From a virus (lineage: Duplodnaviria; Heunggongvirae; Uroviricota; Caudoviricetes): a stretch of DNA of 17,278 bases. The position numbers were made by a program, and so were the translations under genes. The DNA lies in the IMG/VR virus record IMGVR_UViG_2711768073_000019; one strand, 5' to 3'. Positions 1-16,766 of the stretch are shown one piece after another (the stretch's first letter is position 1; every line of letters begins with the position of its first letter). Below the pieces are notes generated by a model. It did not search any database. It was not told the origin of the DNA and was given only the letters and a program-made list of their open reading frames with translations.

Positions 1-549
1 ATGCAATTTAATATCCCTACGTTGCTTACACTGTTCCGTGTCATCCTTATCCCATTCTTTGTATTGGTCTTTTATCTGCCTGTCACCTGGTCGCCGTTTG
101 CCGCCGCGCTCATTTTCTGCGTCGCGGCGGTGACTGACTGGTTCGATGGTTTTCTGGCACGCCGCTGGAACCAGAGTACCCGGTTTGGTGCTTTCCTTGA
201 CCCTGTGGCAGATAAAGTTCTCGTGGCTATCGCCATGGTGCTGGTAACCGAGCATTATCACAGCTGGTGGGTGACATTACCGGCGGCAACGATGATCGCC
301 CGTGAAATTATTATTTCTGCGCTACGCGAATGGATGGCGGAGTTGGGTAAACGCAGTAGCGTGGCCGTCTCCTGGATTGGGAAAGTGAAAACCACTGCCC
401 AGATGGTGGCGTTGGCATGGCTGCTGTGGCGTCCGAACATTTGGGTTGAGTACGCCGGTATTGCACTTTTCTTTGTGGCTGCGGTACTGACTCTGTGGTC
501 AATGTTGCAATATTTGAGCGCTGCGCGTGCAGATTTGCTTGATCAGTGA
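1..549 (+). CDS. pgsA: CDP-diacylglycerol--glycerol-3-phosphate 3-phosphatidyltransferase (phosphatidylglycerophosphate synthase), 182 aa, complete
   Basis: ATG at 1, TGA at 547-549. Multi-pass membrane protein with the CDP-alcohol phosphatidyltransferase motif (DWFDGFLAR...[10 protein letters not shown]). Matches E. coli PgsA from memory. Conserved synteny with the downstream glyW-cysT-leuZ tRNAs. Confidence 0.96.
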
Positions 550-599
550 TCGTTTCGGCGTAATTTTCAGCAAACGATCAAAAGTGGTGAAAAATATCG

Positions 600-627
600 T
601 TGACTCATCGCGCCAGGTAAGTAGAAT
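600..627 (+). promoter_or_regulatory. Putative sigma70 promoter of the glyW-cysT-leuZ tRNA operon (-35 TTGACT 600-605, 16-bp spacer, -10 TAGAAT 622-627)
   Basis: Near-consensus hexamers read directly. AT-rich UP-like tract upstream (aaaagtggtgaaaaatatcg), GC-rich discriminator downstream, about 75 bp before tRNA-Gly. Not experimentally anchored. Confidence 0.5.
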
Positions 628-700
628 GCAACGCATCGAACGGCGGCACTGATTGCCAGACGATAATAAAATCAAGTGATTAACTGATTGCTTGATGAAT

Positions 701-776
<76 letters not shown>

Positions 777-830
777 GTTTAAAAGACATCGGCGTCAAGC
801 GGATGTCTGGCTGAAAGGCCTGAAGAATTT

Positions 831-904
831 GGCGCGTTAACAAAGCGGTTATGTAGCGGATTGCAAATCCGTCTAGTCCGGTTCGACTCCGGAACGCGCC
901 TCCA
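831..904 (+). tRNA. cysT: tRNA-Cys (anticodon GCA), 74 nt with encoded CCA
   Basis: GGCGCGTTAACAAAGCGGTTATGTAGCGGATTGCAAATCCG...GCGCCTCCA. Acceptor stem ggcgcgt/acgcgcc, anticodon loop ttGCAaa. Confidence 0.96.
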
Positions 905-916
905 CTTTCTTCCCGA

Positions 917-1003
917 GCCCGGATGGTGGAATCGGTAGACACAAGGGATTTAAAATCCCTCGGCGTTCGCGCTGTGCGGGTTCAAGTCCCGCTCCGGGTA
1001 CCA
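917..1003 (+). tRNA. leuZ: tRNA-Leu (anticodon UAA), 87 nt class II tRNA with long variable arm and encoded CCA
   Basis: GCCCGGATGGTGGAATCGGTAGACACAAGGGATTTAAAATCCC...GGTTCAAGTCCCGCTCCGGGTACCA. Anticodon loop ttTAAaa, long variable arm. Confidence 0.96.
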
Positions 1004-1046
1004 TGGGAAAGATAAGAATAAAATCAAAGCAATAAGCAGTGTCGTG

Positions 1047-1069
1047 AAACCACCTTCGGGTGGTTTTTT
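1047..1069 (+). terminator. Rho-independent terminator of the tRNA operon
   Basis: Hairpin aaaccacc-ttcg-ggtggttt followed by T-run (1064-1069). Confidence 0.85.
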
Positions 1070-1541
1070 CGTATTTGTATTTTGTGCAATGGCGGTAGAG
1101 TGGCGATGGTGTGGCGATATGCAGAAACAATGGTAGTGCACGTGCTGTTTAAACTCTAAGGATGAAGCAGAATTCTTCTGCAGCTCCTCCGTATTTCGCA
1201 TAGTGAACCAGGACCTCTGTTAAACAAAAATTTTTCTGGGATTTTTTCACTCGACTTCATTTTTCCTCCTGCAATCCACCAACAGGTACCTGCGCTAATC
1301 TATCTTTTTAATCTGACAACATCTTGGGAAAAGGCAAATTCGTCAGATTTACTGTTTTTCTGCTGCCTCGAATGCCGATGTCTGAAGCACTGATAAGAGT
1401 TCTATCTCTTTGATATAGATCTTTTTTTTGATGAATTGCACGACATATTATCGTTATGACACCTTCTTGTTAAAGGTATTGTACTCCTCATCTCGATTTT
1501 ATGATGTGGGCTATGATTGGTTAGTAATAGAGTGTATCGGT

Positions 1542-1823
1542 ATGCGATGTGGTTTATTAATGGCAATCTGCCTTTGTTTAGTATCTTTTAGTGGATATGC
1601 AGCAACAGGAAAGTCTGATGCTCAGATCAAAAAAGAAATAATTAAAGAATCCATTGAATCTTATCCAGGCAATTGTGCGTGTCCTTATAATCATGCAAGG
1701 AATGGTAGTAGATGTGGTGGACGCAGTGCATATAGCCGTAATGGAGGGTATGACGTGGTATGTTATGAGGGTGATGTTACCGATGAAATGATCCGGCAAT
1801 GGAAGCAGGAGAATGCTGAGTAA
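1542..1823 (+). CDS. Small secreted Cys-rich hypothetical protein (93 aa from ATG 1542; the track ORF starts upstream at 1428)
   Basis: N-terminal hydrophobic signal-peptide-like segment MRCGLLMAICLCLVSFSGYAATG. Mature part has 4 Cys (NCACPYNHARNGSRCGG...VVCYEG). Lies in a roughly 38 percent GC region just past the tRNA terminator. No recognised family; weak RBS. Confidence 0.4.
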   Translation: MRCGLLMAICLCLVSFSGYAATGKSDAQIKKEIIKESIESYPGNCACPYNHARNGSRCGGRSAYSRNGGYDVVCYEGDVTDEMIRQWKQENAE

Positions 1824-1895
1824 TCTCTTTTAACAGGTTTGTTGTGCGAGCATTATGTGCCGTTAACGGTACACTAGCTAGTGATTGTTCCAAAA

Positions 1896-1932
1896 AGAAA
1901 ACCCGCAGTTCTTACGCTGCGGGTTTGTTGTT
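1896..1932. terminator. Bidirectional intrinsic terminator hairpin
   Basis: aaacccgcag-ttcttacg-ctgcgggttt, a perfect 10-bp stem flanked by A-run on one side and T-rich tract on the other. It sits 3' of the minus-strand hok-like gene and 3' of the plus-strand small ORF. Confidence 0.7.
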
Positions 1933-2011
1933 CATGTCTGTGAGATAGGGTGCCACTTCAGCCAACCTTAGCAACCGATTGACGGGGGATTGCTCCCCCG
2001 TCGCGGTTTCC

Positions 2012-2152
2012 TTACTGCTTACACTGTAAGAACGCCGCAAACTCCGCTCCCCAGAAGCTCATCCGTATTTCACACAGCGAACCGTGTAGCATCCAGATGA
2101 TGAGGATTACCGTCACGCAGAACGTGATGGCTGTAAGCGATTTTTGCGACAT
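2012..2152 (-). CDS. Hok/Gef-family type I toxin, 46 aa (not in the supplied ORF track because it is under 60 aa)
   Basis: Manual translation of the minus strand: MSQKSLTAITFCVTVILIIWMLHGSLCEIRMSFWGAEFAAFLQCKQ. Single N-terminal TM helix followed by the Hok signature SLCEIR and an EFAAF(L) tail (compare Hok KSLCEIR...EVAAFMAYE). RBS aaaGGAGcaagcgctATG. Followed 3' by a perfect stem-loop gacggggg-attgct-cccccgtc (1981-2002), then the terminator. Confidence 0.8.
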   Translation of the reverse strand: MSQKSLTAITFCVTVILIIWMLHGSLCEIRMSFWGAEFAAFLQCKQ

Positions 2153-2342
2153 AGCGCTTGCTCCTTTGTTGGAGAGGCGCTAACCTATCACTTGCTTAAG
2201 GTAGATATGTTAGGGCCTCGGTTAAACAGAAATGTTTTCCGGGGCCTTTCCACATCCGGCCTTCGGGTATTCCTCCGACCATCAGCCGAAAGGCACCCGC
2301 GGGTAATCTATCGTTTTTTTGTTACTCCGGCAATTCTGCCTG

Positions 2343-2603
2343 TTAATTCTGAGGTAAAGGCAAACTCATCTGATTGTTTCCCCTGTGTGAAGCTGGCAGC
2401 TCATGCCACGGGATACCTTCCGAAGAGTGAACGCCGGAGGCGTGTTTTGATGTGAATTTATGGAAAGCTTCCAGTGTTGAGAAGCATACGCCGCATTCCA
2501 GGTTGTTACACTGGTAATACTTTTGCCGCACAGTGTTTGAATCGTTTTCCGGACGACTGGTGCGGATTCGGGCAGATGCGCCACAAAGCGGACAACGGAA
2601 CAT
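2343..2603 (-). CDS. ogr: Ogr/Delta-family zinc-finger late-gene transcriptional activator (P2-like), 86 aa
   Basis: MFRCPLCGASARIRTSRPENDSNTVRQKYYQCNNLECGVCF aligns with P2 Ogr MFHCPLCQHAAHARTSRY...ERYHQCQNVNCSATF, including the four Cys ligands (C4, C7, C32, C37). Strong RBS aaGGGAGGtcgctATG. The C-terminus is longer than the P2 Ogr as recalled (72 aa). Confidence 0.8.
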   Translation of the reverse strand: MFRCPLCGASARIRTSRPENDSNTVRQKYYQCNNLECGVCFSTLEAFHKFTSKHASGVHSSEGIPWHELPASHRGNNQMSLPLPQN

Positions 2604-2892
2604 AGCGACCTCCCTTAACGTGGTGCTGCCGCTATTCTAAGTTGTAATAGCTCAGACTCCAACTGACAGTTTGCGCAGCCAGAATACAATCAAACCTAGC
2701 GGTACGCTTTGTGCGAAGAGCGGAAGTTCGCAACTCCAACAACTTTGATAACCTCCGCATAAATGGAAATCGGTTGCTTACATAAGTTTATTGGCTGAGG
2801 TGCATATCGGGAAGCAAGCGGGCAGTGCCATCTTATCTGTTACAATCCCGAAATGATTGTTCAGCCCGCTTTTTCTAACAGCATGTAAACAT

Positions 2893-4032
2893 TCAGCTGC
2901 AAATTTCGTTGTTGCTGCATGTTATCTCTTCAAGTGCAGCGGCGTTATAATCAACGGAATGATCAACCTGTGATGTAGGTCTGCCAAAAAATTCAACCCC
3001 TGACATAATCATGTTGCCGATATTCTCTCGCTGTTTATCACTGAGCCTGTCCCACCACTCAGGGGATGAATATGTATTTTCGGCCTTTGTGAAGAAAAAA
3101 TACAGAAGGGTATTGAACATCCTGTTAGCTGGGATCTTAATTAGTGTCCGTATAAAACGTCTGATAATTGTTGAAGTTCTCAGCCAACTGAACACTACAT
3201 ATCCCTTACCTCCGCAGGAAAAAGCATTGAAACATACTTGTTCCGCCGACACTGTAAGATCGCTCAAATCCTGAATTTTGGTCCCATCGAAATCCCTCTC
3301 CGGTGAAAGAATTGACGAAACTACAATTGGTAAAGGCTCTGCAAAAGTGAAGATAACACTTTCAATTTCTGAAAATTGCCTGCTAAGTAGGATGCGGTCG
3401 AGGCTAGTTTTAAGATTATTTAATTCAATTATTGCTGCATTTAAGCCACTTTGGTGCTGGTCGATTAATTTCTGAATATAATACTGTTCAACTTGTAGCT
3501 TTCCTTTATCGGCATTTTTAGCAAAATCAGAAGATAGCACTCCCCCTTCTTTGGCATAAATTTCTTTAGACAATGAACGAAACATTAAGGCAAAGCACTG
3601 CTCGTCCGTGCCTGTAAATTTTTCGTTCTCTAGGCATGAAAATAAGATTCTGTCATGAACTGCACAAAATCCTGTAAAAGTGGATGCCTGATTGATACCG
3701 ATCTTCTCGGGAAGCCATTTTCCGTTGTTTCTCATCAGGCTTGCTAAGTTCATTATCACCCCCATGACGTGATTGCTGGAGTCGGCGATCGCCTTAAGGC
3801 TACTGCTCTTAGATATCGTATGCGCCTGAACGATGCGTTTATCACAATCTTCGTGCATGGATGCTGGCGCATAACATGCCTTTCTCTGCGAGAGAGACTT
3901 TGAAAATTTCAGTGCCTCGGCTTTGGATACCGGAGTTTCACGATCTCGACCAAGATGGCACTTTTTATACTTAAGTCCTGAATTACACCAGCACTTATCA
4001 TTTCTTCCTAATTTCACTTTATTGTTTCCCAC
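2893..4032 (-). CDS. Hypothetical cargo protein, 379 aa, with N-terminal SEC-C-type zinc-ribbon motif; unknown function
   Basis: Long uninterrupted minus-strand ORF in an AT-rich block between gpD and ogr. Residues 9-26 GRNDKCWCNSGLKYKKCH match the SEC-C metal-binding motif. The rest resembles no family I recognise. The annotated start is GTG without a clear SD; an alternative GTG at 4017 follows GGGAAA. Confidence 0.6.
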   Translation of the reverse strand: MGNNKVKLGRNDKCWCNSGLKYKKCHLGRDRETPVSKAEALKFSKSLSQRKACYAPASMHEDCDKRIVQAHTISKSSSLKAIADSSNHVMGVIMNLASLMRNNGKWLPEKIGINQASTFTGFCAVHDRILFSCLENEKFTGTDEQCFALMFRSLSKEIYAKEGGVLSSDFAKNADKGKLQVEQYYIQKLIDQHQSGLNAAIIELNNLKTSLDRILLSRQFSEIESVIFTFAEPLPIVVSSILSPERDFDGTKIQDLSDLTVSAEQVCFNAFSCGGKGYVVFSWLRTSTIIRRFIRTLIKIPANRMFNTLLYFFFTKAENTYSSPEWWDRLSDKQRENIGNMIMSGVEFFGRPTSQVDHSVDYNAAALEEITCSNNEICS

Positions 4033-4431
4033 GAAATTAATGTTCTATAACAAAAACACTTATCGAAAATAGGTGTAATTTATCACTCCGGCAGCTAAAA
4101 GATCATCTGCCACATGCACGATAATAAATCTTCCTTGCGTCATCATCTCCCTCTGTTCTTAAATCAGGTGTTGCCTGTGTGCGGAGGATTCGCGAAGTAC
4201 AGTAGCCGAAATGCATGATCTTACCCATCAATGGTGAGCACGCGATAATAAGTGAGTCCCTAATTGACCACTCATGGCAATACAACTTCAACCAGCATTC
4301 ATGACCACTATCCGTGGATTAACTGTTACATAAGCAACACCTGCTCTAGGCACAAAGCGGGCTGCCAGATTGGGTCTGGCACTGTGCTGTGAGTGTGTCA
4401 GTTCTGGTTTGAGTCAATACATCTAATTTGC

Positions 4432-5532
4432 TCATTCTGTTTCTGCTATCCATTCCGGGATTTTTGCTTCAAGCTCAAGCTGTGTGGTAAAGCCGCTGTT
4501 ATCAATGGTGTGCTCGGCTTTTGCAATAATCCAGTCCTGATTATCGATGTCACTTTTGAAGCCTGTCACCGTGCCATGCATTTCGGGATAGAGTTCTGCG
4601 CGTCCACGCGCCAGCGTGATGGAGAATGATGCGGCTCCGCGTTGTAGCTGCTGCCACTTTGCCGCCGCTGCACGTCTTGCTGCCTGCTCGTTCTGATAAG
4701 TCTTGCGTAACACAAACACGTTGCCTTCCGCACCTTCCATATAGTCACCTTCACGGCTGCTGCTTTTCTCCTTTTTCGGTTTGCGGCGTTTCACGCTGAC
4801 TTTTTTCTTTTTCCCGTAATTAAGATCAAGCCAGTAAGCACGTACCCCCGTATACGCTTCGCGGTCAGCAATGCGGAACTGATGGCGATCGCCACTGCTG
4901 CGCGTGATGGCGAACGATGGCAACGGCTGGCCCTGTGCGTTCACGCCACCGCCTGGCATGATGAATAACAGATTACTGCTTTTTACCGTAGTGATTGCGC
5001 CCAGCATTTCCGCCATGCGCGTAAGGAAGGACATGTCGCTTTCTTCGGTCTGGTCGGCGTGGTCGATTTCAATATCCATCAGCATTTCGCTGATTTGTGG
5101 TTTCAGACCGTACCGATGAGCGATGGCGGATACCACGCGCTCAACGGTCACATCATGCCAGGACACCTCACGTTTAACGTTAAATTCATCCCGAAAATCT
5201 GCGCTTCTGGCTGAAACAGTCAGCCTGTCCGGCGGTCCTTCGTGAGCGATTTCATCAACAATGTAAGTGCCTTTTTCTGTCAGCGGTTCTCCTTTCCAGC
5301 CAATGAGAACCGTCAGGTGCGCGCCCCGTGGCGGTAGCTGCAACTGACCATCTGCATCATCCAGCATGATGGTGAGCTGGTCCGCCTCAAATCCCCGGTT
5401 GTCGGTCAGTGACAGGCTCATCAGGCGCTCTGCCACGCCGGACAGTGTTTCCCCCTCCGCGAGAATATCAAAATCCGGCATTTTCACGGGGTCTGTGCTC
5501 TGACTGAGCAATTGCATGGTGGTATCGGTCAT
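4432..5532 (-). CDS. D: P2-like tail protein D (Phage_GPD / late control gene D family), copy 1, 366 aa
   Basis: RBS AGGGAGGgaacagATG at 5532 (track ORF 4432-5664 has 44 junk N-terminal codons running into IS2). Typical gpD motifs: SLSLTDNRGFEADQLTIMLDDADGQL, VSWHDVTVERVVSAIAHRYGLKP, K/R-rich internal linker. Ends ...EWIAETE. Confidence 0.9.
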   Translation of the reverse strand: MTDTTMQLLSQSTDPVKMPDFDILAEGETLSGVAERLMSLSLTDNRGFEADQLTIMLDDADGQLQLPPRGAHLTVLIGWKGEPLTEKGTYIVDEIAHEGPPDRLTVSARSADFRDEFNVKREVSWHDVTVERVVSAIAHRYGLKPQISEMLMDIEIDHADQTEESDMSFLTRMAEMLGAITTVKSSNLLFIMPGGGVNAQGQPLPSFAITRSSGDRHQFRIADREAYTGVRAYWLDLNYGKKKKVSVKRRKPKKEKSSSREGDYMEGAEGNVFVLRKTYQNEQAARRAAAAKWQQLQRGAASFSITLARGRAELYPEMHGTVTGFKSDIDNQDWIIAKAEHTIDNSGFTTQLELEAKIPEWIAETE

Positions 5533-5648
5533 CTGTTCCCTCCCTGTGCGGCATGGTCGCATGTGCGTGCATAGGGGGTTACTGCTTTTTGTTGTCGCCG
5601 TGGCGGGAGAACGGCGCAGGGGTGAGATTACGCGNCCTGGATTTGCCC

Positions 5649-6554
5649 CTATATTTCCAGACACCTGTTATCACTTACCCCATCACTGGCCCACTGCCGC
5701 AGATATTCCCGTGGCGAGCGATAACCCAGCGCACTATGCGGATGCCATTCGTTATAATGCTCGAACGCCTCTGCAAGGTTCTTTGCTGCCGTTAACCCGT
5801 CTGGTTTGGGCATGATACTTATGTAGTCACGCTTTATCGTTTTCACGAAGCTCTCTGCTATTCCGTTACTCTCCGGACTCCGCACTGCCGTGTTCTTCGG
5901 TTCAAGTCCCAACATCCTGGCGAACTGACGTGTTTCATTCGCCCGGTAGCATGAACCATTATCCGTCAGCCACTCCACTGGAGACGCCGGAAGCTCGCTG
6001 CCAAAGCGGCGTTCCACTGCTCCCAGCATGACGTCCTGTACTGTTTCACTGTCGAAGCCACCCGTTGTGACCGCCCAGTGCAGTGCCTCACGGTCACAGC
6101 AGTCCAGCGCGAACGTGACCCGCAGTTTTTCTCCGTTATCACAGCGGAACTCAAACCCGTCAGAGCACCATCGCTGATTACTTTCTTTCACAGCCACTCT
6201 GCCGGTATGTGCCCGTTTCGATGGCGGTACAGCGGGTTTTCGCTCAAGCAACAGCGCATTCTGGCGCATGATCCGGTAAACACGTTTGGCATTGATCGCA
6301 GGCATACCATCAAGTTCTGTTTGTCTGCGAAGCAGCGCCCATACCCGACGATAACCATATGTGGGTAGCTCTCCGATAACATGGTGTATACGGCGAAGCA
6401 CATCCGTATCATCCGTGTGACGGCTGCGGCGGCCGTCCTTCCAGTCATCGGCTCGTCTGAGAATGACGTGCAACTGCGCACGCGACACCCGGAGACAACG
6501 GCTGACGAAGCTTACTCCCCATCCCCGGGCAATAAGGGCGCGTGCGCTATCCAC
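5649..6554 (-). CDS. insD: IS2 transposase OrfB (InsD, DDE integrase domain), 301 aa; expressed as OrfAB fusion by -1 frameshift
   Basis: [34 protein letters not shown]... is IS3-family OrfB with an rve integrase core. Overlaps insC in the -1 frame. Confidence 0.93.
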
Positions 6555-6877
6555 TTTTTTGCTCGCCCATATTCAACGGCTTCTTTAAGGAGTTCATTTT
6601 CCATCGTTTTTTTGCCGAGCAGACGCTGGAGTTCTTTAATCTGCTTCATGGCGGCAGCAAGTTCAGAGGCAGGAACGACCTGTTCTCCGGCAGCCACAGC
6701 AGTAAGACTTCCCTCCTGGTATTGCTTACGCCAGAGAAATAGCTGGCTGGCTGCCACACCATGTTGCCGGGCAACAAGGGAGACCGTCATTCCCGGTTCA
6801 AAGCTCTGCTGAACGATAGCGATCTTTTCCTGTGTAGTACGCCGTCTGCGTTTCTCCGGCCCTAAGACATCAATCAT
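6512..6877 (-). CDS. insC: IS2 transposase OrfA (InsC), 121 aa
   Basis: [40 protein letters not shown]... is identical in character to IS2 InsC. Start set at ATG 6877 (GGAGAACAGATG), not the upstream track start. Confidence 0.93.
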
Positions 6878-6968
6878 CTGTTCTCCAATGACTAGTCTAA
6901 AAACTAGTATTAAGACTATCACTTATTTAAGTGATATTGGTTGTCTGGAGATTCAGGGGGCCAGTCTA

Positions 6969-8019
6969 CGACCTAAATCCTGAGCTCATCCCCGATATTA
7001 TTTCGGCTATTAAAAAACTATCAACGCCACCTTACAAAATAGAGATACAGGGTGGGGAGCCTCTCTTGCGGTTTGATTTAATTCAGAGCATCTATGATCA
7101 ATGTGCTGAAACGCTGGGAAGAACCAATTTTGAGATGGTGGTGGCATCAAGTCTGTCTGTCTTGAATGAGGATATGATTGAATGGTCGAGAGACCGGAAC
7201 ATAACGTTCTCTGTGTCGCTTGATGGTGAGGAAGTTGTTCACAACAGTAATCGAATTCTTGGTCGTGGGCTTGCGTATAGTAGAACAGTGTCAGGGGTAG
7301 AGGCTATCAAACACTCTTTAGGTGCTGGCCGCGTTGCAACGGTTACTACAGTTACTAAAGAGCTTATCAGACGTCCTGAATCGATTGTTCAGGCTCACTT
7401 GTCTCTTGGTCTCAAGGACATGTTTATCCGACCTGTTAGTCCCTATGGGTTTGCACAAAAAGCTTCTTTCACCTTTTCTATGGACGAATACTTCAGCTTC
7501 TATGCCTCGTTGATAGATGAAATCCTTAAGATTAATAATGAAGGGATAAGGGTTGTGGAACATTCGGCCTCCATTCATCTGAAAAGGATCTTCAATCCCG
7601 GTTTTAGTGGTTATGCGGATTTAAAGTCTCCAAGTGGAGTCGTGCTTAACAGTATTCTTTTCAATTATGACGGTCGAGTATATGGTAGCGATGAGAGCCG
7701 TATGTTGCAGAAGGTGAATCCTGAAACGGAGTTCAGTGCGGGTGAAGTTAAGACGCTATCATTTTCTGATAGTCCTTACTATAACGCAGTATTGAGTTCA
7801 TCGTTCAATTTTGCTCTGCCAGGTTGTGATACATGTGCATATCAACCATTTTGTGGTTCAGATCCATGCCAGAACATAAGTGTACAGGGTGAGCCTGTCG
7901 GTGATAGGAGTCGTTCAACGTTTTGTCAATATCACAAGGGGATGTTCAGGTATCTGATGAACTGCATCTCAGAGGGTGGTTCGAAGGCTGAGATGCTAAA
8001 AGGATGGGCATATGTCTGA
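6969..8019 (+). pseudogene. 5'-truncated radical SAM / SPASM-domain enzyme (HxsB-like maturase), interrupted by IS2
   Basis: Reading frame continues out of the IS2 end. Retained sequence begins just before the SAM-binding GGEPLL motif but lacks the upstream CxxxCxxC triad, so roughly 60-100 N-terminal residues are missing. C-terminal Cys-rich auxiliary-cluster motif ALPGCDTCAYQPFCGSDPC. Low GC. The B versus C assignment is tentative. Confidence 0.65.
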
Positions 8020-9124
8020 GGTTATCAGGAACGATATCTTTCATTTTGCTTCTACAGAGAACGTGCCCACGGGGTTCTATCGGTTATGCAAACAAAAACC
8101 AGTGAACCCTTTATTCTTTTTGCCCAATTTGCTAGTAGTTGCTGAAGGCAATAATGATGCCATTCCACCATGCTTTGATTTCTCTGTTATTAGCACTGAA
8201 TTATTTGAGTCAATTGAAGATGGAGATATTGGGATAATCAACAATGGCAATATGATACGCGTTATTCTGTCACGCAAAGCCAATCATAATACTGTCTTAG
8301 TTACGGAACGCTGCAATAACTTGTGTCTGTTTTGTTCGCAGCCACCAAAGAAAATAAATGATGACTGGCTACTTACCCAATCAGCTCTTGCTATAGCTTC
8401 ATTTGGCTTGAACGGAGTTGTTGGGGTCAGCGGTGGTGAACCTTTGCTATATGGGGATGACTTCCTTCACTTCATTGATTTTATCATCGAGAATTCACCA
8501 GATACTGCTTTACATGTTTTAACAAACGGACGCAAATTTGCTGATATCAACTTTACACAGGAAATGGCAAAGCGAAGCAAAAAGATCAAAATCACCTTTG
8601 GTATCCCGCTCTACTCATCAAGACCACTTGTGCATGATCATCTGGTAGGGAGTGATGGCGCATTTAATGAAACGGTTAAAGGGTTAATCAATGCAGGAAA
8701 CTTGGGGATTAATATCGAACTTAGAGTTATTCCTACACTGGCTAACTATACCGAATTGGATGATATTGTAGAATTCGCTGGCCGTGTGTTCTCCAACATC
8801 AATCAGATTTCCCTTATGGGGTTGGAGCCTATCGGTTGGGCACGAAAAAACTGGTCCACCATCTTCATTGATCACAGTAGTTATAGTGAGAAAATAATCT
8901 CTGCCATAGACGCTGCATACAGGTCAGGCATACCTCTGACAATTTTTAATTATCCTTTGTGTTATCTTCCTGAAAGGGCTAGGGAGCTTGCTGTTCAGTC
9001 GATCTCTGATTGGAAAAATTACTATCCAAAAGAATGTGATGAATGTACTCAGAAGCCTTCCTGTGCTGGCTATTTCAGTTCCTCAAAAGGCCGTTTTCAT
9101 CAATCACCGAGACCAATTTTATGA
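8012..9124 (+). CDS. Radical SAM enzyme (HxsC-like maturase), 370 aa
   Basis: CxxxCxxC motif ERCNNLCLFCSQP at about residues 99-111, GGEPLLY SAM-binding motif, C-terminal Cys cluster ECDECTQKPSC. Start overlaps the upstream stop (ATGtcTGA), indicating translational coupling. Low GC. Confidence 0.75.
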   Translation: MSEVIRNDIFHFASTENVPTGFYRLCKQKPVNPLFFLPNLLVVAEGNNDAIPPCFDFSVISTELFESIEDGDIGIINNGNMIRVILSRKANHNTVLVTERCNNLCLFCSQPPKKINDDWLLTQSALAIASFGLNGVVGVSGGEPLLYGDDFLHFIDFIIENSPDTALHVLTNGRKFADINFTQEMAKRSKKIKITFGIPLYSSRPLVHDHLVGSDGAFNETVKGLINAGNLGINIELRVIPTLANYTELDDIVEFAGRVFSNINQISLMGLEPIGWARKNWSTIFIDHSSYSEKIISAIDAAYRSGIPLTIFNYPLCYLPERARELAVQSISDWKNYYPKECDECTQKPSCAGYFSSSKGRFHQSPRPIL

Positions 9125-9756
9125 AAAAGTTTAATTTTGCTGCTCTACTTCCGGGATTTTTGGCTCTCAACAATTCTGTATGGGCAAGCGATTCATCTAC
9201 AGGAGCGAGTGATTTACCTGGTATGACTCTTAATGAGCATGATTTAGTGATAGCTCCACTTAACACGGAAGTCCCATTTTATATCGCAGGGCATCGAAGC
9301 CATAGCTCTCATAGGAGCCATAGCTCTCATAGATCCTCATCAGGTGGTGGATACTATGGTGGAAGTACCCCCTATTATCCAAAAACATACAGCTCACCAA
9401 GTTCATCTGGTTCTTCAAGTTCAGGTGCAAGTTCCTCATCGTCCTCTTCCTCGGTGCGTGCACTTCGTTCTAACGATAATAATAGAACCACTAACACGAG
9501 TTCTGTTGGAACTTCAGAGGTTAACCGTACGAGTAATGGGCTTGCTTCTGATGCAGAGAAACGTAAGCGATTGATTATGCGAGTTCAGTTCGCATTGCTG
9601 GACAGGGGATTTTATAACGGAAATATTGACGGCATAATGGGGCCATCCACAAGGCTGTCTGTGAAAAATTACCGCATTGCGAATGGATTACCGATTCCTG
9701 CAACTGAAACACTCGACACTCAATTGTTAAATTCTTTGAATATATTAGCTCGCTAA
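9121..9756 (+). CDS. hxsA: His-Xaa-Ser repeat precursor-like protein with signal peptide and C-terminal peptidoglycan-binding-like domain (HxsA-like), 211 aa
   Basis: ATGA overlap with the preceding rSAM gene. Signal peptide MKKFNFAALLPGFLALNNSVWA; (H-R-S)(H-S-S)(H-R-S)(H-S-S)(H-R-S) repeats; Ser/Gly low-complexity linker; C-terminal LLDRGFYNGNIDGIMGPSTRLSVKNYRIANGLP resembles a PG_binding_1 fold. Matches my recollection of the TIGRFAM His-Xaa-Ser system description. Confidence 0.65.
   Translation: MKKFNFAALLPGFLALNNSVWASDSSTGASDLPGMTLNEHDLVIAPLNTEVPFYIAGHRSHSSHRSHSSHRSSSGGGYYGGSTPYYPKTYSSPSSSGSSSSGASSSSSSSSVRALRSNDNNRTTNTSSVGTSEVNRTSNGLASDAEKRKRLIMRVQFALLDRGFYNGNIDGIMGPSTRLSVKNYRIANGLPIPATETLDTQLLNSLNILAR
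9298..9333 (+). repeat. 2 x 18-bp near-perfect tandem direct repeat inside hxsA encoding the HSSHRS repeats
   Basis: agccatagctctcatagg (9298-9315) and agccatagctctcataga (9316-9333), 17/18 identical. Confidence 0.85.
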
Positions 9757-9920
9757 ATCTCAGTGAGGTATAAATAAAAAGCAATAAATTATATTAGTCG
9801 CGCGTCCATTATTAGTGGGTAAGATCAAGGACCGTCTGCTCTGTGTTAGGGGCAGATGGTCAGATAAGACTGTGCCGTTTAGCCCGCTAGTACGTGTCTG
9901 GACTAATACATTTAAGAGTC

Positions 9921-11024
9921 TCATTCTGCTATCCATTCCGGGATTTTTGCCTCAAGCTCAAGCTGCGTGGTAAAGCCGCTGTTATCAATGGTGTGCTCGG
10001 CTTTCGCAATAATCCAGTCCTGATTATCAATCTCGCTTTTAAAGCCTGTTACCGTGCCATGCATTTCGGGGTAGAGTTCTGCGCGTCCACGTGCCAGTGT
10101 GATGGAGAACGCTGCGGCTCCGCGTTGTAGCTGCTGCCACTTTGCCGCCGCTGCGCGTCTTGCTGCCTGCTCGTTCTGATAAGTCTTGCGTAACACAAAC
10201 ACATTGCCTTCCGCGCCTTCCATATAATCACCTTCACGGCTGCTGCTTTTCTCCTTTTTGGGTTTTGGCGGTTTACGGCGTTTCACGCTGACTTTTTTCT
10301 TTTTCCCGTAATTAAGATCAAGCCAGTAGGCGCGTACCCCCGTATACGCCTCGCGGTCAGCAATACGGAACTGATGGCGATCGCCGCTGCTGCGTGTAAT
10401 GGCGAACGAGGGCAACGGCTGGCCCTGTGCGTTCACGCCACCACCTGGCATGATGAATAACAGATTGCCGCTTTTTACTGTGGTGATTGCGCCCAGCATT
10501 TCCGCCATGCGCGTAAGGAAGGACATGTCGCTTTCTTCGGTCTGGTCGGCGTGGTCGATTTCGATATCCATCAGCATTTCGCTGATTTGCGGTTTCAGAC
10601 CGTACCGATGAGCGATGGCGGATACCACACGCTCAACGGTCACATCATGCCAGGACACCTCACGTTTAACGTTAAATTCATCCCGAAAATCTGCGCTTCT
10701 GGCTGAAACAGTCAGCCTGTCCGGCGGTCCTTCGTGTGCAATTTCATCAACAATGTAAGTGCCTTTTTCTGTCAGCGGTTCTCCTTTCCAGCCAATGAGA
10801 ACCGTCAGGTGCGCGCCCCGTGGCGGTAGCTGCAACTGACCATCTGCATCATCCAGCATGATGGTGAGCTGGTCCGCCTCAAATCCCCGGTTGTCGGTCA
10901 GTGACAGGCTCATCAGGCGCTCTGCCACGCCTGACAGCGTTTTACCCTCCGCGAGAATATCAAAATCCGGCATTTTCACGGGGTCTGTGCCCTGACTGAG
11001 CAATTGCATGGTGGTGTCGGTCAT
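9921..11024 (-). CDS. D: P2-like tail protein D, copy 2 (diverged allele), 367 aa
   Basis: Same family and RBS as copy 1 but distinct sequence: SQGTDP vs SQSTDP, AEGKTLSG vs AEGETLSG, KRRKPPKPKKEK vs KRRKPKKEK, ends ...EWIAE without the TE. The 3' flank differs completely from copy 1. Confidence 0.9.
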   Translation of the reverse strand: MTDTTMQLLSQGTDPVKMPDFDILAEGKTLSGVAERLMSLSLTDNRGFEADQLTIMLDDADGQLQLPPRGAHLTVLIGWKGEPLTEKGTYIVDEIAHEGPPDRLTVSARSADFRDEFNVKREVSWHDVTVERVVSAIAHRYGLKPQISEMLMDIEIDHADQTEESDMSFLTRMAEMLGAITTVKSGNLLFIMPGGGVNAQGQPLPSFAITRSSGDRHQFRIADREAYTGVRAYWLDLNYGKKKKVSVKRRKPPKPKKEKSSSREGDYMEGAEGNVFVLRKTYQNEQAARRAAAAKWQQLQRGAAAFSITLARGRAELYPEMHGTVTGFKSEIDNQDWIIAKAEHTIDNSGFTTQLELEAKIPEWIAE

Positions 11025-11181
11025 CTGTTCCCTCCCTGTGCGGCATGGTCGCATGTGCGTGCGGAGGGGGTTACTGCTTTTTGTTGTCGCCGGGTCGGGA
11101 GAACGGCGCAGGGGTGAGATTACGCGCGTGGTGGGTGATGATTGTTGCCGAATCATTTAACGGATACAAGGGGCTGAAGCT

Positions 11182-12348
11182 ATGAGTGAAACTCGTTTTC
11201 ATGGTGCCCGTGTTACGGAAAATACCGACCTGGTAACAGCGATTAACGATGTTGATTCCAGCGTTATCGGTATCGTGGCAACGGCGGATGATGCGGACGC
11301 GAAGCTGTTCCCGCTGAACAAGCCCACACTGCTGACCCGCGTCAATGACGTGCTGGGAAAATGCGGGACAACGGGGACGCTTTATCGTGCGCTTAAGGCC
11401 ATTGCAGACCAGGTGAGCACAAAGGTGATCGTCGTTCGCGTGGCTGAACACAAAGAAGAAGACGGAAAGACGCAGGATCAACTGGTTATCGGTGGTTCTG
11501 AATCTGACGGCAGCTATACGGGGATGTATGCGCTGCTTGTTGCAGAGCAGGATGAAAGCATCGGATACCGTCCGCGTATTCTGGCCGCGCCGGAGCTGGA
11601 CACGGAGGCGGTAACAAAATCCCTGTGCGTGATTGCGGGTAAACTGCGCGCGTTTGTGTATGCCTCATGTCACGGCTGTAACACGATGGCTGAGGCGATT
11701 ACCTACCGCCAGAAATTCAACGAACGTGAGGTGATGCTCTTATGGCCGGACTTCATCGCCTACAACCCGAAAAGTGGCAAAAACGAAACGTTCCCCGCGC
11801 CTGCCTATGCGTGTGGCCTTCGTGCGTACATTGACCATGAGCAGGGATGGCACAAATCACTGTCCAACGTTCCGGTTAAAAATGTGCTGGGGATGTCGAG
11901 GCATGTGTTCTGGTCGTTGCAGGCCGAAGACAGCGATGCCAACAGCCTCAACAACAAAGAAATCACGACCATTATTCGTCGCAACGGGTTCCGCTTCTGG
12001 GGCAACCGCACACCGGAAACGAACGCCTACATCTTTGAGGTGTATACCCGAACCGCACAGGTGCTGGCTGATTCAATTGCAGAAGCGCAGTTTGAAACCA
12101 TCGACAGTCCACTGACGCCTGCGAACGTGAAGGATGTTATCAGTGCCATCAGGGCAAAACTGGATTCACTGGTTACTGCCGGGAAACTGATTGGCGCGGA
12201 GTGCTGGTATGACGTGGTGGATAACAGCACCACGGATTTACGTCAGGGACGTGTGCGTATTCGCTACAAATATACGCCCGTTCCGCCACTGGAAGACATG
12301 GAGCTTTACCAGACGTTTACTGATGAATACTTTGAACCCGCATTTGCG
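11182..12348 (+). CDS. FI: P2-like tail sheath protein FI, 3' end cut by an ambiguous base (last 5 codons missing)
   Basis: MSETRFHGARV...WPDFIAYNP...GFRFWGNRT...YKYTPVPPLEDMELYQTFTDEYFEPAFA shows conserved sheath motifs as in P2 gpFI. Frame is broken at n 12349, where the sequence jumps into the antisense interior of gpD. Confidence 0.88.
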
Positions 12349-12349
12349 N

Positions 12350-12998
12350 GGCGATCGCCACTGCTGCGCGTGATGGCGAACGATGGCAACGGCTGGCCCT
12401 GTGCGTTCACGCCACCGCCTGGCATGATGAATAACAGATTACTGCTTTTTACCGTAGTGATTGCGCCCAGCATTTCCGCCATGCGCGTAAGGAAGGACAT
12501 GTCGCTTTCTTCGGTCTGGTCGGCGTGGTCGATTTCAATATCCATCAGCATTTCGCTGATTTGTGGTTTCAGACCGTACCGATGAGCGATGGCGGATACC
12601 ACACGCTCAACGGTCACATCATGCCAGGACACCTCACGTTTAACGTTAAATTCATCCCGAAAATCTGCGCTTCTGGCTGAAACAGTCAGCCTGTCCGGCG
12701 GTCCTTCGTGAGCGATTTCATCAACAATGTAAGTGCCTTTTTCTGTCAGCGGTTCTCCTTTCCAGCCAATGAGAACCGTCAGGTGCGCGCCCCGTGGCGG
12801 TAGCTGCAACTGACCATCTGCATCATCCAGCATGATGGTGAGCTGGTCCGCCTCAAATCCCCGGTTGTCGGTCAGTGACAGGCTCATCAGGCGCTCTGCC
12901 ACGCCGGACAGTGTTTCCCCCTCCGCGAGAATATCAAAATCCGGCATTTTCACGGGGTCTGTGCTCTGACTGAGCAATTGCATGGTGGTATCGGTCAT
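12350..12998 (-). pseudogene. gpD fragment (N-terminal about 216 codons, copy-1-type allele)
   Basis: Identical in character to 4885-5532. Bounded by n at 12349. Confidence 0.7.
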
Positions 12999-13155
12999 CT
13001 GTTCCCTCCCTGTGCGGCATGGTCGCATGTGCGTGCATAGGGGGTTACTGCTTTTTGTTGTCGCCGTGGCGGGAGAACGGCGCAGGGGTGAGATTACGCG
13101 CGTGGTGGGTGATGATTGTTGCCGAATCATTTAACGGATACAAGGGGCTGAAGCT

Positions 13156-13897
13156 ATGAGTGAAACTCGTTTTCATGGTGCCCGTGTTACGGAAAGTACC
13201 GACCTGGTAACAGCGATTAATGATGTTGATTCCAGTGTTATCGGTATCGTGGCAACGGCGGATGATGCGGACGCGGAGCTGTTCCCGCTGAACAAGCCCA
13301 CACTGCTGACCCGCGTCAATGACGTGCTGGGAAAATGCGGGACTACGGGGACGCTTTATCGTGCGCTTAAGGCTATTGCAGACCAGGTGAGCACAAAAGT
13401 GATCGTCGTTCGCGTGGCTGAACACAAAGAAGAAGGCGGTAAGACGCAGGATCAACTGGTTATCGGTGGTTCTGAATCTGACGGCAGCTATACGGGGATG
13501 TATGCGCTGCTTGTTGCAGAGCAGGATGAAAGCATCGGATACCGTCCGCGTATTCTGGCCGCGCCGGAGCTGGACACGGAGGCGGTGACAAAATCCCTGT
13601 GCGTGATTGCGGGTAAACTGCGCGCGTTTGTGTATGCCTCATGTCATGACTGTAACACGATGGCTGAGGCAATTACCTACCGCCAGAAATTCAACGAACG
13701 TGAGGTGATGCTCTTATGGCCGGACTTCATCGCCTACAACCCGAAAAGTGGCAAAAACGAAACGTTCCCCGCGCCTGCCTATGCGTGCGGCCTTCGTGCG
13801 TACATTGACCATGAGCAGGGCTGGCACAAATCGCTGTCCAACGTTCCTGTTAAAAATGTGCTGGGGATGTCCAGGCATGTTTTCTGGTCGTTGCAGG
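13156..13897 (+). pseudogene. FI fragment (N-terminal about 247 codons, variant allele: ESTDLV, ADAELF, EEGGKTQ, SCHDCNT)
   Basis: Runs into the N-run at 13898-13908. Confidence 0.7.
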
Positions 13898-13908
13898 NNN
13901 NNNNNNNN
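13898..13908. other. Assembly gap (11 N)
   Basis: Run of n. Sequence after the gap restarts at the gpD start region (tcggtcatctgttccctccc). Confidence 0.99.
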
Positions 13909-14073
13909 TCGGTCATCTGTTCCCTCCCTGTGCGGCATGGTCGCATGTGCGTGCGGAGGGGGTTACTGCTTTTTGTTGTCGCCGGGTCGGGAGAACGGCG
14001 CAGGGGTGAGATTACGCGCGTGGTGGGTGATGATTGTTGCCGAATCATTTAACGGATACAAGGGGCTGAAGCT

Positions 14074-14779
14074 ATGAGTGAAACTCGTTTTCATGGTGCC
14101 CGTGTTACGGAAAATACCGACCTGGTAACAGCGATTAACGATGTTGATTCCAGCGTTATCGGTATCGTGGCAACGGCGGATGATGCGGACGCGAAGCTGT
14201 TCCCGCTGAACAAGCCCACACTGCTGACCCGCGTCAATGACGTGCTGGGAAAATGCGGGACAACGGGGACGCTTTATCGTGCGCTTAAGGCCATTGCAGA
14301 CCAGGTGAGCACAAAGGTGATCGTCGTTCGCGTGGCTGAACACAAAGAAGAAGACGGAAAGACGCAGGATCAACTGGTTATCGGTGGTTCTGAATCTGAC
14401 GGCAGCTATACGGGGATGTATGCGCTGCTTGTTGCAGAGCAGGATGAAAGCATCGGATACCGTCCGCGTATTCTGGCCGCGCCGGAGCTGGACACGGAGG
14501 CGGTGACAAAATCCCTGTGCGTGATTGCGGGTAAACTGCGCGCGTTTGTGTATGCCTCATGTCATGACTGTAACACGATGGCTGAGGCAATTACCTACCG
14601 CCAGAAATTCAACGAACGTGAGGTGATGCTCTTATGGCCGGACTTCATCGCCTACAACCCGAAAAGTGGCAAAAACGAAACGTTCCCCGCGCCTGCCTAT
14701 GCGTGCGGCCTTCGTGCGTACATTGACCATGAGCAGGGCTGGCACAAATCGCTGTCCAACGTTCCTGTTAAAAATGTGC
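14074..14779 (+). pseudogene. FI fragment (N-terminal about 235 codons, mosaic allele: ENTDLV and AKLF but SCHDCNT)
   Basis: Runs into the N-run at 14780-14816. Confidence 0.7.
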
Positions 14780-14816
14780 NNNNNNNNNNNNNNNNNNNNN
14801 NNNNNNNNNNNNNNNN
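14780..14816. other. Assembly gap (37 N)
   Basis: Run of n. Sequence resumes inside FI at about codon 77. Confidence 0.99.
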
Positions 14817-15772
14817 AGGTGAGCACAAAGGTGATCGTCGTTCGCGTGGCTGAACACAAAGAAGAAGACGGAAAGACGCAGGATCAACTGGTTATCGGTG
14901 GTTCTGAATCTGACGGCAGCTATACGGGGATGTATGCGCTGCTTGTTGCAGAGCAGGATGAAAGCATCGGATACCGTCCGCGTATTCTGGCCGCGCCGGA
15001 GCTGGACACGGAGGCGGTAACAAAATCCCTGTGCGTGATTGCGGGTAAACTGCGCGCGTTTGTGTATGCCTCATGTCACGGCTGTAACACGATGGCTGAG
15101 GCGATTACCTACCGCCAGAAATTCAACGAACGTGAGGTGATGCTCTTATGGCCGGACTTCATCGCCTACAACCCGAAAAGTGGCAAAAACGAAACGTTCC
15201 CCGCGCCTGCCTATGCGTGCGGCCTTCGTGCGTACATTGACCATGAGCAGGGCTGGCACAAATCGCTGTCCAACGTTCCTGTTAAAAATGTGCTGGGGAT
15301 GTCCAGGCATGTTTTCTGGTCGTTGCAGGCCGAAGACAGTGATGCCAACAGCCTCAACAACAAAGAAATCACGACCATTATTCGTCGCAACGGGTTCCGC
15401 TTCTGGGGCAACCGCACACCGGAAACGAACGCCTACATCTTTGAGGTGTATACCCGAACCGCACAGGTGCTGGCTGATTCAATTGCGGAAGCGCAGTTTG
15501 AAACCATCGACAGTCCACTGACGCCTGCGAACGTGAAGGATGTTATCAGTGCCATCAGGGCAAAACTGGATTCGCTGGTTACTGCCGGGAAACTGATTGG
15601 CGCGGAGTGCTGGTATGACGTGGTGGATAACAGCACCACGGATTTACGTCAGGGGCGTGTGCGTATTCGCTACAAATATACGCCCGTTCCGCCACTGGAA
15701 GACATGGAGCTTTACCAGACGTTTACTGATGAATACTTTGAACCCGCATTTGCGGTGCTGGGAGGTGCCTGA
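14817..15772 (+). pseudogene. FI fragment (C-terminal about 318 codons to native stop)
   Basis: Ends ...EPAFAVLGGA-TGA at 15770-15772. Followed by tggctgt, then n at 15780. Confidence 0.7.
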
Positions 15773-15780
15773 TGGCTGTN

Positions 15781-16766
15781 TTTATCGTGCGCTTAAGGCC
15801 ATTGCAGACCAGGTGAGCACAAAGGTGATCGTCGTTCGCGTGGCTGAACACAAAGAAGAAGACGGAAAGACGCAGGATCAACTGGTTATCGGTGGTTCTG
15901 AATCTGACGGCAGCTATACGGGGATGTATGCGCTGCTTGTTGCAGAGCAGGATGAAAGCATCGGATACCGTCCGCGTATTCTGGCCGCGCCGGAGCTGGA
16001 CACGGAGGCGGTAACAAAATCCCTGTGCGTGATTGCGGGTAAACTGCGCGCGTTTGTGTATGCCTCATGTCACGGCTGTAACACGATGGCTGAGGCGATT
16101 ACCTACCGCCAGAAATTCAACGAACGTGAGGTGATGCTCTTATGGCCGGACTTCATCGCCTACAACCCGAAAAGTGGCAAAAACGAAACGTTCCCCGCGC
16201 CTGCCTATGCGTGTGGCCTTCGTGCGTACATTGACCATGAGCAGGGATGGCACAAATCACTGTCCAACGTTCCGGTTAAAAATGTGCTGGGGATGTCGAG
16301 GCATGTGTTCTGGTCGTTGCAGGCCGAAGACAGCGATGCCAACAGCCTCAACAACAAAGAAATCACGACCATTATTCGTCGCAACGGGTTCCGCTTCTGG
16401 GGCAACCGCACACCGGAAACGAACGCCTACATCTTTGAGGTGTATACCCGAACCGCACAGGTGCTGGCTGATTCAATTGCAGAAGCGCAGTTTGAAACCA
16501 TCGACAGTCCACTGACGCCTGCGAACGTGAAGGATGTTATCAGTGCCATCAGGGCAAAACTGGATTCACTGGTTACTGCCGGGAAACTGATTGGCGCGGA
16601 GTGCTGGTATGACGTGGTGGATAACAGCACCACGGATTTACGTCAGGGACGTGTGCGTATTCGCTACAAATATACGCCCGTTCCGCCACTGGAAGACATG
16701 GAGCTTTACCAGACGTTTACTGATGAATACTTTGAACCCGCATTTGCGGTGCTGGGAGGTGCCTGA
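15781..16766 (+). pseudogene. FI fragment (C-terminal, from about codon 67, to native stop)
   Basis: Begins LYRALKAIADQ... directly after n 15780. Stop TGA at 16764-16766 overlaps the FII ATG. Confidence 0.7.

Follow-up and report, generated by a model that had tools for sequence, protein, structure and literature searches.

Why should two copies of one phage tail gene, found in the same stretch of DNA, each be joined to a different cargo of low GC content? The question is raised by the IMG/VR record IMGVR_UViG_2711768073_000019 (Caudoviricetes), a stretch of 17,278 bp, hereafter the window, which contains two genes for the tail/baseplate hub protein D (gpD). The answer is very probably that the spacer between gene D and ogr, the gene of the late-gene activator, is a cargo slot of a P88-like lineage of Escherichia coli prophages that accommodates mostly anti-phage cassettes, and that the window samples two such prophages with different cargo. 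One carries a gene for a SEC-C protein related to the lactococcal anti-phage protein Rugutis; the other carries a His-Xaa-Ser (HXS) operon broken by the insertion sequence IS2.

Two gpD genes and their junctions

The sequence-only reading of this DNA had described two homologous but distinct gpD copies at 4432–5532 and 9921–11024, and both minus-strand genes are indeed located there. Their DNA is 95.4% identical over 1203 bp (4441–5634 vs 9924–11126), and 359 of 367 amino acids (98%) agree. The same reading reported a 6-bp and a 2-codon indel; indels are present, but they comprise one 9-bp (3-codon, PPK) indel and two additional C-terminal codons (TE) in copy 1, which is annotated as “late control D family protein” in closed genomes. 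BLASTN similarity between the two regions stops at the D stop codon, and the GC content of the cargo is 0.41–0.43 vs about 0.53–0.55 for D. The 3' flanks had been regarded as unrelated. The cargos do differ, with a SEC-C gene behind copy 1 and convergent hxs genes behind copy 2, but the first ~110 nt past each stop codon constitute a diverged common border (57% identity; score 11.5 vs −6.4 ± 4.4 for shuffled sequences, with a maximum of 6.0).

The sequence that connects each D with its cargo is free of N, as had been noted, and both junctions recur intact in closed E. coli genomes. Segment 1–5634 is contained whole (100% coverage, 99.8% identity) in at least 80 of them (e.g., O103 RM8385), and the hxsA–D junction is found at 100% coverage in 29 (e.g., O26:H11 11368). 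There, the junctions belong to two prophages at different chromosomal sites, one beside tRNA-Leu after pgsA and the other beside ihfA, which bears out the proposal of separate prophages and speaks against a chimeric junction. Both prophages share one layout: host DNA is followed by hok, ogr, the cargo, D (minus strand), the tail genes FI-FII-E-E'-T-U (plus strand), an acetyltransferase gene, G, H, I, and J (minus strand) and, further on, the capsid and terminase genes. Among the matches listed, the accessions of closed genomes with the SEC-C prophage do not overlap with those with the hxs prophage.

The window consists of E. coli DNA (99.8% identity to closed genomes) that opens with pgsA and the genes of tRNA-Gly, tRNA-Cys, and tRNA-Leu, but it is a scaffold of six contigs and not a single continuous molecule. 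Similarity between internal repeats halts exactly at each N (5635, 12349, 13898–13908, 14780–14816, and 15780), so the N runs are contig joints, and the linkage of the two gpD copies in the displayed order is not established; the order of the pieces carries no weight as linkage evidence. The sheath gene FI is present in at least three to four variants (contigs B and F are identical, whereas contigs D, E, and C show 99.1%, 98.9%, and 97.3% identity to B). The source was therefore a strain with more than two P88-like prophages, a strain mixture, or a collapsed repeat graph.

The interval between D and ogr

Loci were fetched by gpD, 46 of them from bacterial assemblies representing one genome per species and 80 from IMG/VR, and the gap between the stop codon of D and the start of ogr was measured; D, ogr, and the interval between them were available for 120 loci. 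Among the IMG/VR relatives (D at least 97% identical in amino acids), the gap is 43–45 bp in 45 of 75 loci and holds an insert of 1.0–4.0 kb in the other 30. When loci recovered by the border motif described below are added and duplicates removed, there are 40 empty and 33 filled combinations with 21 cassette classes, and a locus from GTDB raises the number of classes to 22. The classes show zero cross-similarity (blastp, 1e-5), and their cargo has a GC content of 0.32–0.43. A filled slot contains a single low-GC cassette of 0.9–4 kb with one to four genes.

The D/ogr lineage is present in 1,202 of 5,426 closed E. coli genomes, and 720 have one or more empty junctions; estimated from about 1,330 D copies and 1,893 half- or whole-junction places, ~40% of the E. 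coli slots are filled. Among other genera (Symbiopectobacterium, Serratia, Erwinia, Enterobacter, Klebsiella, Pantoea, and others), the gap measures 39–95 bp in 43 of 45 loci, and the two filled loci consist of almost identical E. coli sequence in assemblies labelled Vagococcus and Planococcaceae. These two assemblies (Vagococcus sp. WN89Y and the metagenome-assembled genome of Planococcaceae bacterium UBA3378) contain a P88-like prophage with 97–98% protein identity in gpD and E. coli-type cassettes, which is probably contamination of Firmicutes-labelled assemblies with E. coli DNA. The gap of P2 proper is 80–82 bp in all 78 measurable loci among the best 80 IMG/VR relatives of P2 gpD. Because the gap is invariant among P2's own relatives, the hotspot is peculiar to the E. 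coli P88-like clade and does not extend to P2-like phages generally.

Within this clade, cassettes reassort relative to the backbone, since five cargo classes, that of the SEC-C protein included, were each found with two length forms of D; each D variant, in turn, occurs with many cassettes and also with the empty state.

A scan of the cassette classes with PADLOC, Pfam, and NCBIfam yielded matches to known or candidate defence systems in nine of the 22 classes. They comprise cassettes with Thoeris type I (ThsA 673 bits, ThsB 231 bits), Shedu (SduA 691 bits), bSEFIR, SIR2-HerA (837 and 515 bits), a PifA-like KAP NTPase, a PDC-S31/DUF2971 protein, GAPS6 (GapS6a 135.6 bits vs a cut-off of 90), HXS (by NCBIfam scores), and the Rugutis-like SEC-C protein (by homology). 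Further features, found in other classes, are PIN_4, PIN_12, and DUF3800 domains, a ParA-like ATPase, and a weak match to HEPN. None of the cassettes gave a match to a virulence or metabolic family. The suggestion that the same backbone position carries different modules, as in a defence hotspot, thus agrees with at least 22 unrelated cassettes, but the slot extends from D to ogr and not from D to the attachment site, and the variation expected for related prophages is encountered in the E. coli P88-like clade but not in P2 proper or other genera.

Alignment of the ends of 20 cassette classes places all of them within one frame of about 110–160 nt past the D stop and about 75–150 nt before ogr. 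The ogr-side border is conserved across unrelated cargos (consensus ...AGTTGGAATCTGA..AGTACAACTTAGAATAGCGGCAGCACCACGTTAAGGGAGGTCGCT-ATG) and includes a TTGGAA-N17-TAGAAT site in 16 of the 20 classes. A promoter scanner detects this site in the O26 locus, and the ogr promoter of P2 is annotated within the equivalent D–ogr gap; the ogr-side frame likely carries a putative ogr promoter. The divergent CTGACA-N16-TACAAT site could drive cassettes that point away from ogr, such as hxs. On the D side, about 110 nt are conserved. RNAalifold found no consensus structure in this D-proximal border that would suggest a structured RNA or terminator, and a strong GC-rich hairpin (CCGCTCT...AGAGCGG) is present in just about 3–5 of the 20 classes.

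The frame also contains a 9-bp direct repeat, CAACTTAGA, of which empty sites (e.g., locus L054, 11099–11143) have a single copy, whereas filled sites have one at each end with constant offsets. Within two mismatches, it is found on the left in 14 and on the right in 18 of the 20 classes, vs 3.3% of interior 30-nt windows. The repeat overlaps the −10 element of the putative ogr promoter and resembles a target duplication or a recombination core. Compared with hxs copies from an ssrA island and from an element resembling an integrative and conjugative element (ICE), hxs in the slot loses similarity ~104 nt before hxsD and at the stop codon of hxsA, so that about 150 nt of border on either side are specific to the phage. 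The ogr-side (right-border) motif in IMG/VR is located in D–ogr context in 17 of 17 loci. The frame is therefore a part of the slot rather than of its cargo.

Anatomy, diversity, family matches, and reassortment are direct observations on these loci, to which the reading as a P88-like cargo slot adds a scenario for its operation. The source E. coli would carry at least two P88-like prophages, one beside tRNA-Leu downstream of pgsA and one beside ihfA, each of which would keep one accessory cassette between the last tail gene and ogr, in a frame that retains the ogr promoter-like site. The lysogen would express the cassette from the cassette's own promoter, so that competing phages would be excluded and both lysogen and prophage protected, and the cassettes would probably move between phages by homologous recombination in D and ogr, whose sequences are almost the same between these phages, and in the frame. 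Several points weigh against this reading. Expression of the cassettes and protection of the lysogen are deduced from the encoded proteins and by analogy with other P2-family hotspots, and the homology to Rugutis amounts to just 26% identity with a protein whose assays were confined to Lactococcus and a high-copy vector. No known or candidate defence family is matched by 13 of the 22 classes, seven of them being without informative annotation and six having a generic domain only, in some cases a nuclease-like or NTPase-like one. No framed-but-empty slot was seen among the measured loci, which leaves the first entry of a cassette into the frame unexplained. The samples represent the best 80 matches per scan and are biased to close relatives, and the presence of both prophages in one genome is documented solely by their shared scaffold file.

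It is unlikely that the cassettes are mobile units of their own, akin to integron cassettes or small transposons, which insert site-specifically at CAACTTAGA by means of their conserved ends and a putative recombinase. Such units would explain why the repeat is single in empty sites and flanks filled ones, why the terminal sequences are conserved across all unrelated cargo classes, and why no framed-but-empty intermediate was seen. However, cargo found elsewhere does not bring the borders along, as is evident from the hxs similarity, which reaches no further than the edges of the operon, and the right-border motif is confined to the interval between D and ogr (17 of 17 loci). No recombinase gene was found in or beside the slot among the window's open reading frames (ORFs) and the annotated closed-genome loci, so the pairing of an own recombination site with a nearby recombinase that defines integron- or transposon-like cassettes was not encountered. 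Moreover, the left border lacks a consensus structure and has its strong hairpin in few classes only, and the conserved right end is accounted for by its promoter-like site. A related possibility, to which we give a slim chance, is a dedicated platform: a founding insertion would have duplicated CAACTTAGA over the −10 element of ogr and installed the frame of roughly 300 nt, within which a specific mechanism has swapped cassettes since, and, separately, several of the 13 unmatched classes would be new anti-phage systems. If so, the D–ogr platform would be a phage-borne analogue of integrons for defence genes.

That the cargo represents a mixture of lysogenic-conversion genes (virulence, metabolism, toxin–antitoxin stabilisation) and not specifically defence would fit the 13 unmatched classes, the cassette with a ParA-like ATPase, which is not an obvious defence gene, and the nearby hok and serine acetyltransferase genes, which are not classical defence genes. 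We consider this quite improbable, as the nine defence matches are backed by strong scores, several other classes carry PIN, HEPN-like, or DUF3800 domains typical of defence genes, and the scan detected neither virulence nor metabolic families. The patchwork of N-joined contigs with redundant D/FI fragments at 12350–17278 could also suggest an assembly chimera at one or both junctions, or a duplication of gpD within a single prophage. Yet each junction is located inside a contig and matches the closed genomes base for base, and the two arrangements reside at different chromosomal sites, which makes this explanation extremely unlikely.

Cargo, lineage, and neighbouring genes

The SEC-C protein of the first cargo led, by a tblastn search of plasmids, to lactococcal dairy plasmids including pUCCL633A, whose 359-aa SEC-C protein (pUCCL633_059) is the published Rugutis. 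Rugutis is a validated single-gene anti-phage protein of lactococci that acts after DNA injection by an unknown mechanism (Grafakou et al., Nucleic Acids Research 2024, PMC11381338). BLASTP aligns the window protein with Rugutis at 26% identity over 358 aa (residues 5–347; E 2e-37), and hhalign returns a probability of 99.96 over 344 columns. The two proteins are of similar length (379 vs 359 aa), share an N-terminal SEC-C zinc knuckle, are collinear over 344–358 residues, and have the motifs GRNxKCxCxS..K.K.C, AHxI, ASTFTGFCxxHD, and IQDLxD in common. The AlphaFold 2 model of the window protein is confident (predicted local distance difference test score 87.9, predicted template modelling score 0.86) and has no structural neighbour in PDB or BFVD; a confident model without a PDB neighbour was also reported for Rugutis. 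Apart from the low identity, they differ in that Rugutis is encoded on a Lactococcus plasmid, whereas the window protein occupies a prophage slot in a Gram-negative host. The window protein is a full-length homologue of Rugutis and a candidate anti-phage protein in E. coli. PADLOC (2023) has no model for either the SEC-C or the Hxs proteins and produced just weak SEC-C-motif and viperin-like matches; PHROGs gave no match for the SEC-C protein.

The SEC-C family is spread through Gammaproteobacteria. In Salmonella Typhimurium (contig AAJPNL010000026.1, 5726–15694), an 86%-identical SEC-C gene is located in an integrase-AlpA-DUF927 island, where it adjoins an AAA_15/AAA_21 ATPase and a DUF4435 protein that form a PARIS-like pair. 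The defence gene therefore travels also on satellite-like islands, and this context points to a defence role for the family. A 62-codon ORF between the SEC-C gene and D (4103–4291, minus strand) has no match in Pfam, PADLOC, NCBIfam, or PHROGs, is unannotated in RefSeq genomes, and is probably not a gene.

The second cargo is a broken copy of the HXS system. In this system, HxsA acts in the periplasm to block the entry of phage DNA after maturation by two radical-SAM enzymes, HxsB and HxsC; activity was demonstrated in E. coli MG1655 and requires all four genes (Li et al., Nature Communications 2026, PMC13128918). HxsB, HxsC, and HxsA of the window exceed the NCBIfam equivalog cut-offs, and their genes (6969–9756, plus strand) are convergent with D copy 2. 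The translation of hxsA shows HRSHSSHRSHSSHRS repeats, a PG_binding_1 domain at residues 180–217 (E 1.9e-4; 22 bits, slightly below the gathering cut-off of 23), and an apparent signal peptide, judged by eye alone from the start MKKFNFAALLPGFLALNNSVWA. Intact relatives with the operon order hxsD-B-C-A exist. By comparison, the contig with the window copy contains no hxsD, and its hxsB has lost the initial ~112 codons, including the CxxxCxxC radical-SAM motif (CDHTCKYC in the intact HxsB of the O26 strain), so that only hxsC and hxsA are intact. Because hxsD and the Fe-S motif of HxsB were lost to IS2 and every gene is required, the window copy is most likely dead.

IS2, IS3, IS66, IS30, and ISVsa5 are present within or beside the hxs-D-FI stretch at other positions in other closed genomes. 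IS2 lies in hxsC of TD225-C4 and an IS3-family element in hxsC of 13KWH46; IS66, IS30, and ISVsa5 fall somewhere within or beside the stretch in other genomes. This suggests repeated, independent disruption of HXS in the prophage context, which seems common and possibly occurs because the system carries a cost. The hxs allele of the window is present at 99% identity or more in 46 of 152 hxs-positive closed genomes and, where sampled, resides in the P88-like slot, whereas three sampled alleles of 92% identity or less reside in other islands (an ssrA island or an ICE-like element). Of the E. coli hxs operons, 77% are outside predicted prophages (Li et al. 2026, PMC13128918). A conflict with this figure would arise if most E. 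coli hxs operons were located in the slot, but the three divergent alleles were found elsewhere, so the two results are compatible.

The nearest named phages are P88 and other members of Xuanwuvirus, with 94.6–96.6% identity in D and ogr to P88, P884B11, 520873, and 500465-2. On this comparison, which covered the D–ogr–FI region alone and took the genus name from the taxonomy line of 520873, both prophages are placed in the P88-like genus Xuanwuvirus (Peduoviridae, the P2 family). In Escherichia phage P88, D and ogr are 96.6% identical in DNA to those of the window, and the genes are arranged alike, D again being divergent from the FI–U tail block; by contrast, its slot is empty (D–ogr spans 1506 bp in total), whereas those of both window prophages are filled. 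The block FI-FII-E-E'-T-U is inverted relative to P2, with D divergent from FI across a 157-bp intergenic region (11025–11181; also 5533–5634) that must hold two late promoters. Divergent D and FI genes are found in almost every locus fetched with gpD, in many genera, provided that the stored sequence covers the two genes.

A serine O-acetyltransferase gene is located between the tail genes U and G, outside the window (loci L001, 31422–31994, and L002, the O26 locus, 29958–30530). This position is equivalent to the Z/fun hotspot of P2; the prophage of 13KWH46 (L003) has an invertase and alternative tail-fibre genes there. In many closed genomes, D beside hxs is annotated merely as a 795-nt “contractile injection system protein, VgrG/Pvc8 family” plus a pseudogene fragment (L002, 22955–24058; also L003 and L151), and in about 20 genomes of enterotoxigenic E. 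coli with the hxs cassette, D is cut after about 150 nt. The prophage of TD225-C4 is a remnant that ends in the tape-measure gene; gpD copy 2 of the window is a full-length ORF. The element beside ihfA is often a decaying prophage that still holds its cassette.

Between ogr and the attachment site, the stretch 1004–2342 is AT-rich (GC 0.38–0.40) and contains a hok/Gef gene and, at about 1542–1823 on the plus strand between ogr and tRNA-Leu, a gene for a small protein that matches phrog_27544; it may be a second accessory region. The hok gene is retained beside ogr in most related loci, but its identity is just 48% in some IMG/VR loci, which hints at variation also on this side of ogr. The features of the window are compiled in Table 1.

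Table 1. Contigs, genes, and border features of the 17,278-bp window
Feature	Position	Strand	Remarks
Contig A	1–5634		gpD copy 1 and SEC-C cargo
Contig B	5636–12348		IS2, hxs genes, gpD copy 2, most of FI
Contigs C–F	12350–17278		Four short redundant pieces (D 5' part, D–FI intergenic region, FI/tube genes); 97–100% identical to A or B
hok/Gef-family toxin gene	2012–2152	−	Between ogr and the prophage end (tRNA-Leu side); Hok/Gef annotation at the same position of closed genome NZ_CP028112.1
ogr (late-gene activator, Ogr/Delta zinc finger)	2343–2603	−	Pfam Ogr_Delta, E 5e-14; conserved flank of the slot
ogr-proximal border	2604–2750 (outer limit approximate)	−	Sigma-70-like TTGGAG-N17-TAGAAT (2662->2634) reading into ogr; CAACTTAGA at 2644->2636
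Divergent promoter-like CTGACA-N16-TACAAT	2663–2690	+	Back-to-back with the ogr promoter-like site
Rugutis-like SEC-C protein gene (379 aa)	2893–4032	−	Candidate single-gene anti-phage system; Pfam SEC-C at residues 10–27 is the sole Pfam match
D-proximal border, copy 1	4270–4431 (inner limit approximate)	−	One-mismatch copy of the 9-bp repeat, CAAATTAGA, at 4430->4422
gpD copy 1 (tail/baseplate hub protein D, 366 aa)	4432–5532	−	Pfam Phage_GPD, E 1.5e-17; other conserved flank of the slot
IS2 (IS3 family) in hxsB	5636–6968	−	OrfA 6512–6922, OrfB 5649–6554; terminal inverted repeat ends at 6968; contig B begins at the far end
hxsB remnant	6969–8019	+	NCBIfam TIGR03978, 441 bits vs cut-off 370; begins at profile position 112
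hxsC (radical SAM maturase)	8012–9124	+	NCBIfam TIGR03977, 397.5 bits vs cut-off 267.9
hxsA (His-Xaa-Ser repeat effector, peptidoglycan-binding domain)	9121–9756	+	NCBIfam TIGR03979, 161 bits vs cut-off 121.65
D-proximal border, copy 2	9757–9920	−	Outside the hxs module that moves between contexts
gpD copy 2 (367 aa)	9921–11024	−	
Tail sheath gene FI	11182–12348	+	Divergent from D; cut by the contig end; matches the annotated sheath gene in closed genomes

Relation to known defence hotspots

Defence hotspots of P2-like prophages have been described between gpA and gpQ (old/tin; Rousset et al. 2022) and at Z/fun within the tail genes (Vassallo et al. 2022). The D–ogr slot resembles them in that core genes flank a short interval with many low-GC, defence-rich cassettes that reassort relative to the backbone, in the same phage family and host. 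It differs in its position and in being variable only in the E. coli Xuanwuvirus clade and fixed at 80–82 bp in the P2 clade. Three hallmarks of a hotspot are found at the locus, namely flanking by the same pair of core genes, many unrelated contents, and cargo enriched in known anti-phage systems; protection of the lysogen would be a fourth, for which there is published work on homologues (HXS in E. coli MG1655 and Rugutis in Lactococcus). Neither Rousset et al. (2022) nor Vassallo et al. (2022) name it. A survey in Nucleic Acids Research (2026) lists minor hotspots at integrase-att, integrase-primase, and within tail genes and never mentions ogr or gpD, and full-text searches for ogr in connection with hotspots and defence yielded nothing specific to the D–ogr locus. 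A one-sentence mention in the pan-genome literature concerns a region (D ... ogr ... att/int ... C) that probably overlaps, but is not confirmed as the D–ogr gap; it sets no limits to the region and names neither its cargo genes nor a phage lineage. Only the present analysis describes the frame with its promoter-like site and 9-bp repeat and shows that the variation is confined to a single lineage. The D–ogr slot thus adds one more hotspot, so far hardly characterised, to a familiar kind and would not surprise a specialist in phage defence, and both cargos of the window are already described systems or close members of their families.

Hotspots of P2-like prophages are among the most productive sources of new bacterial immune systems. 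The D–ogr slot is sharply bounded by two conserved genes, with an empty state of 45 bp and one cassette in each filled slot, and about a fifth of the closed E. coli genomes carry the lineage. This offers a simple rule for mining, which is to take whatever sits between D and ogr; a sample of about 90 loci already yields seven classes without informative annotation and six with a generic domain only. Rugutis is extended from a lactococcal plasmid to a widespread gammaproteobacterial family on E. coli prophages, which provides a tractable host for work on its mechanism. The variable slot of the P88-like clade and the fixed gap of P2 represent a natural experiment on why a locus becomes a hotspot.

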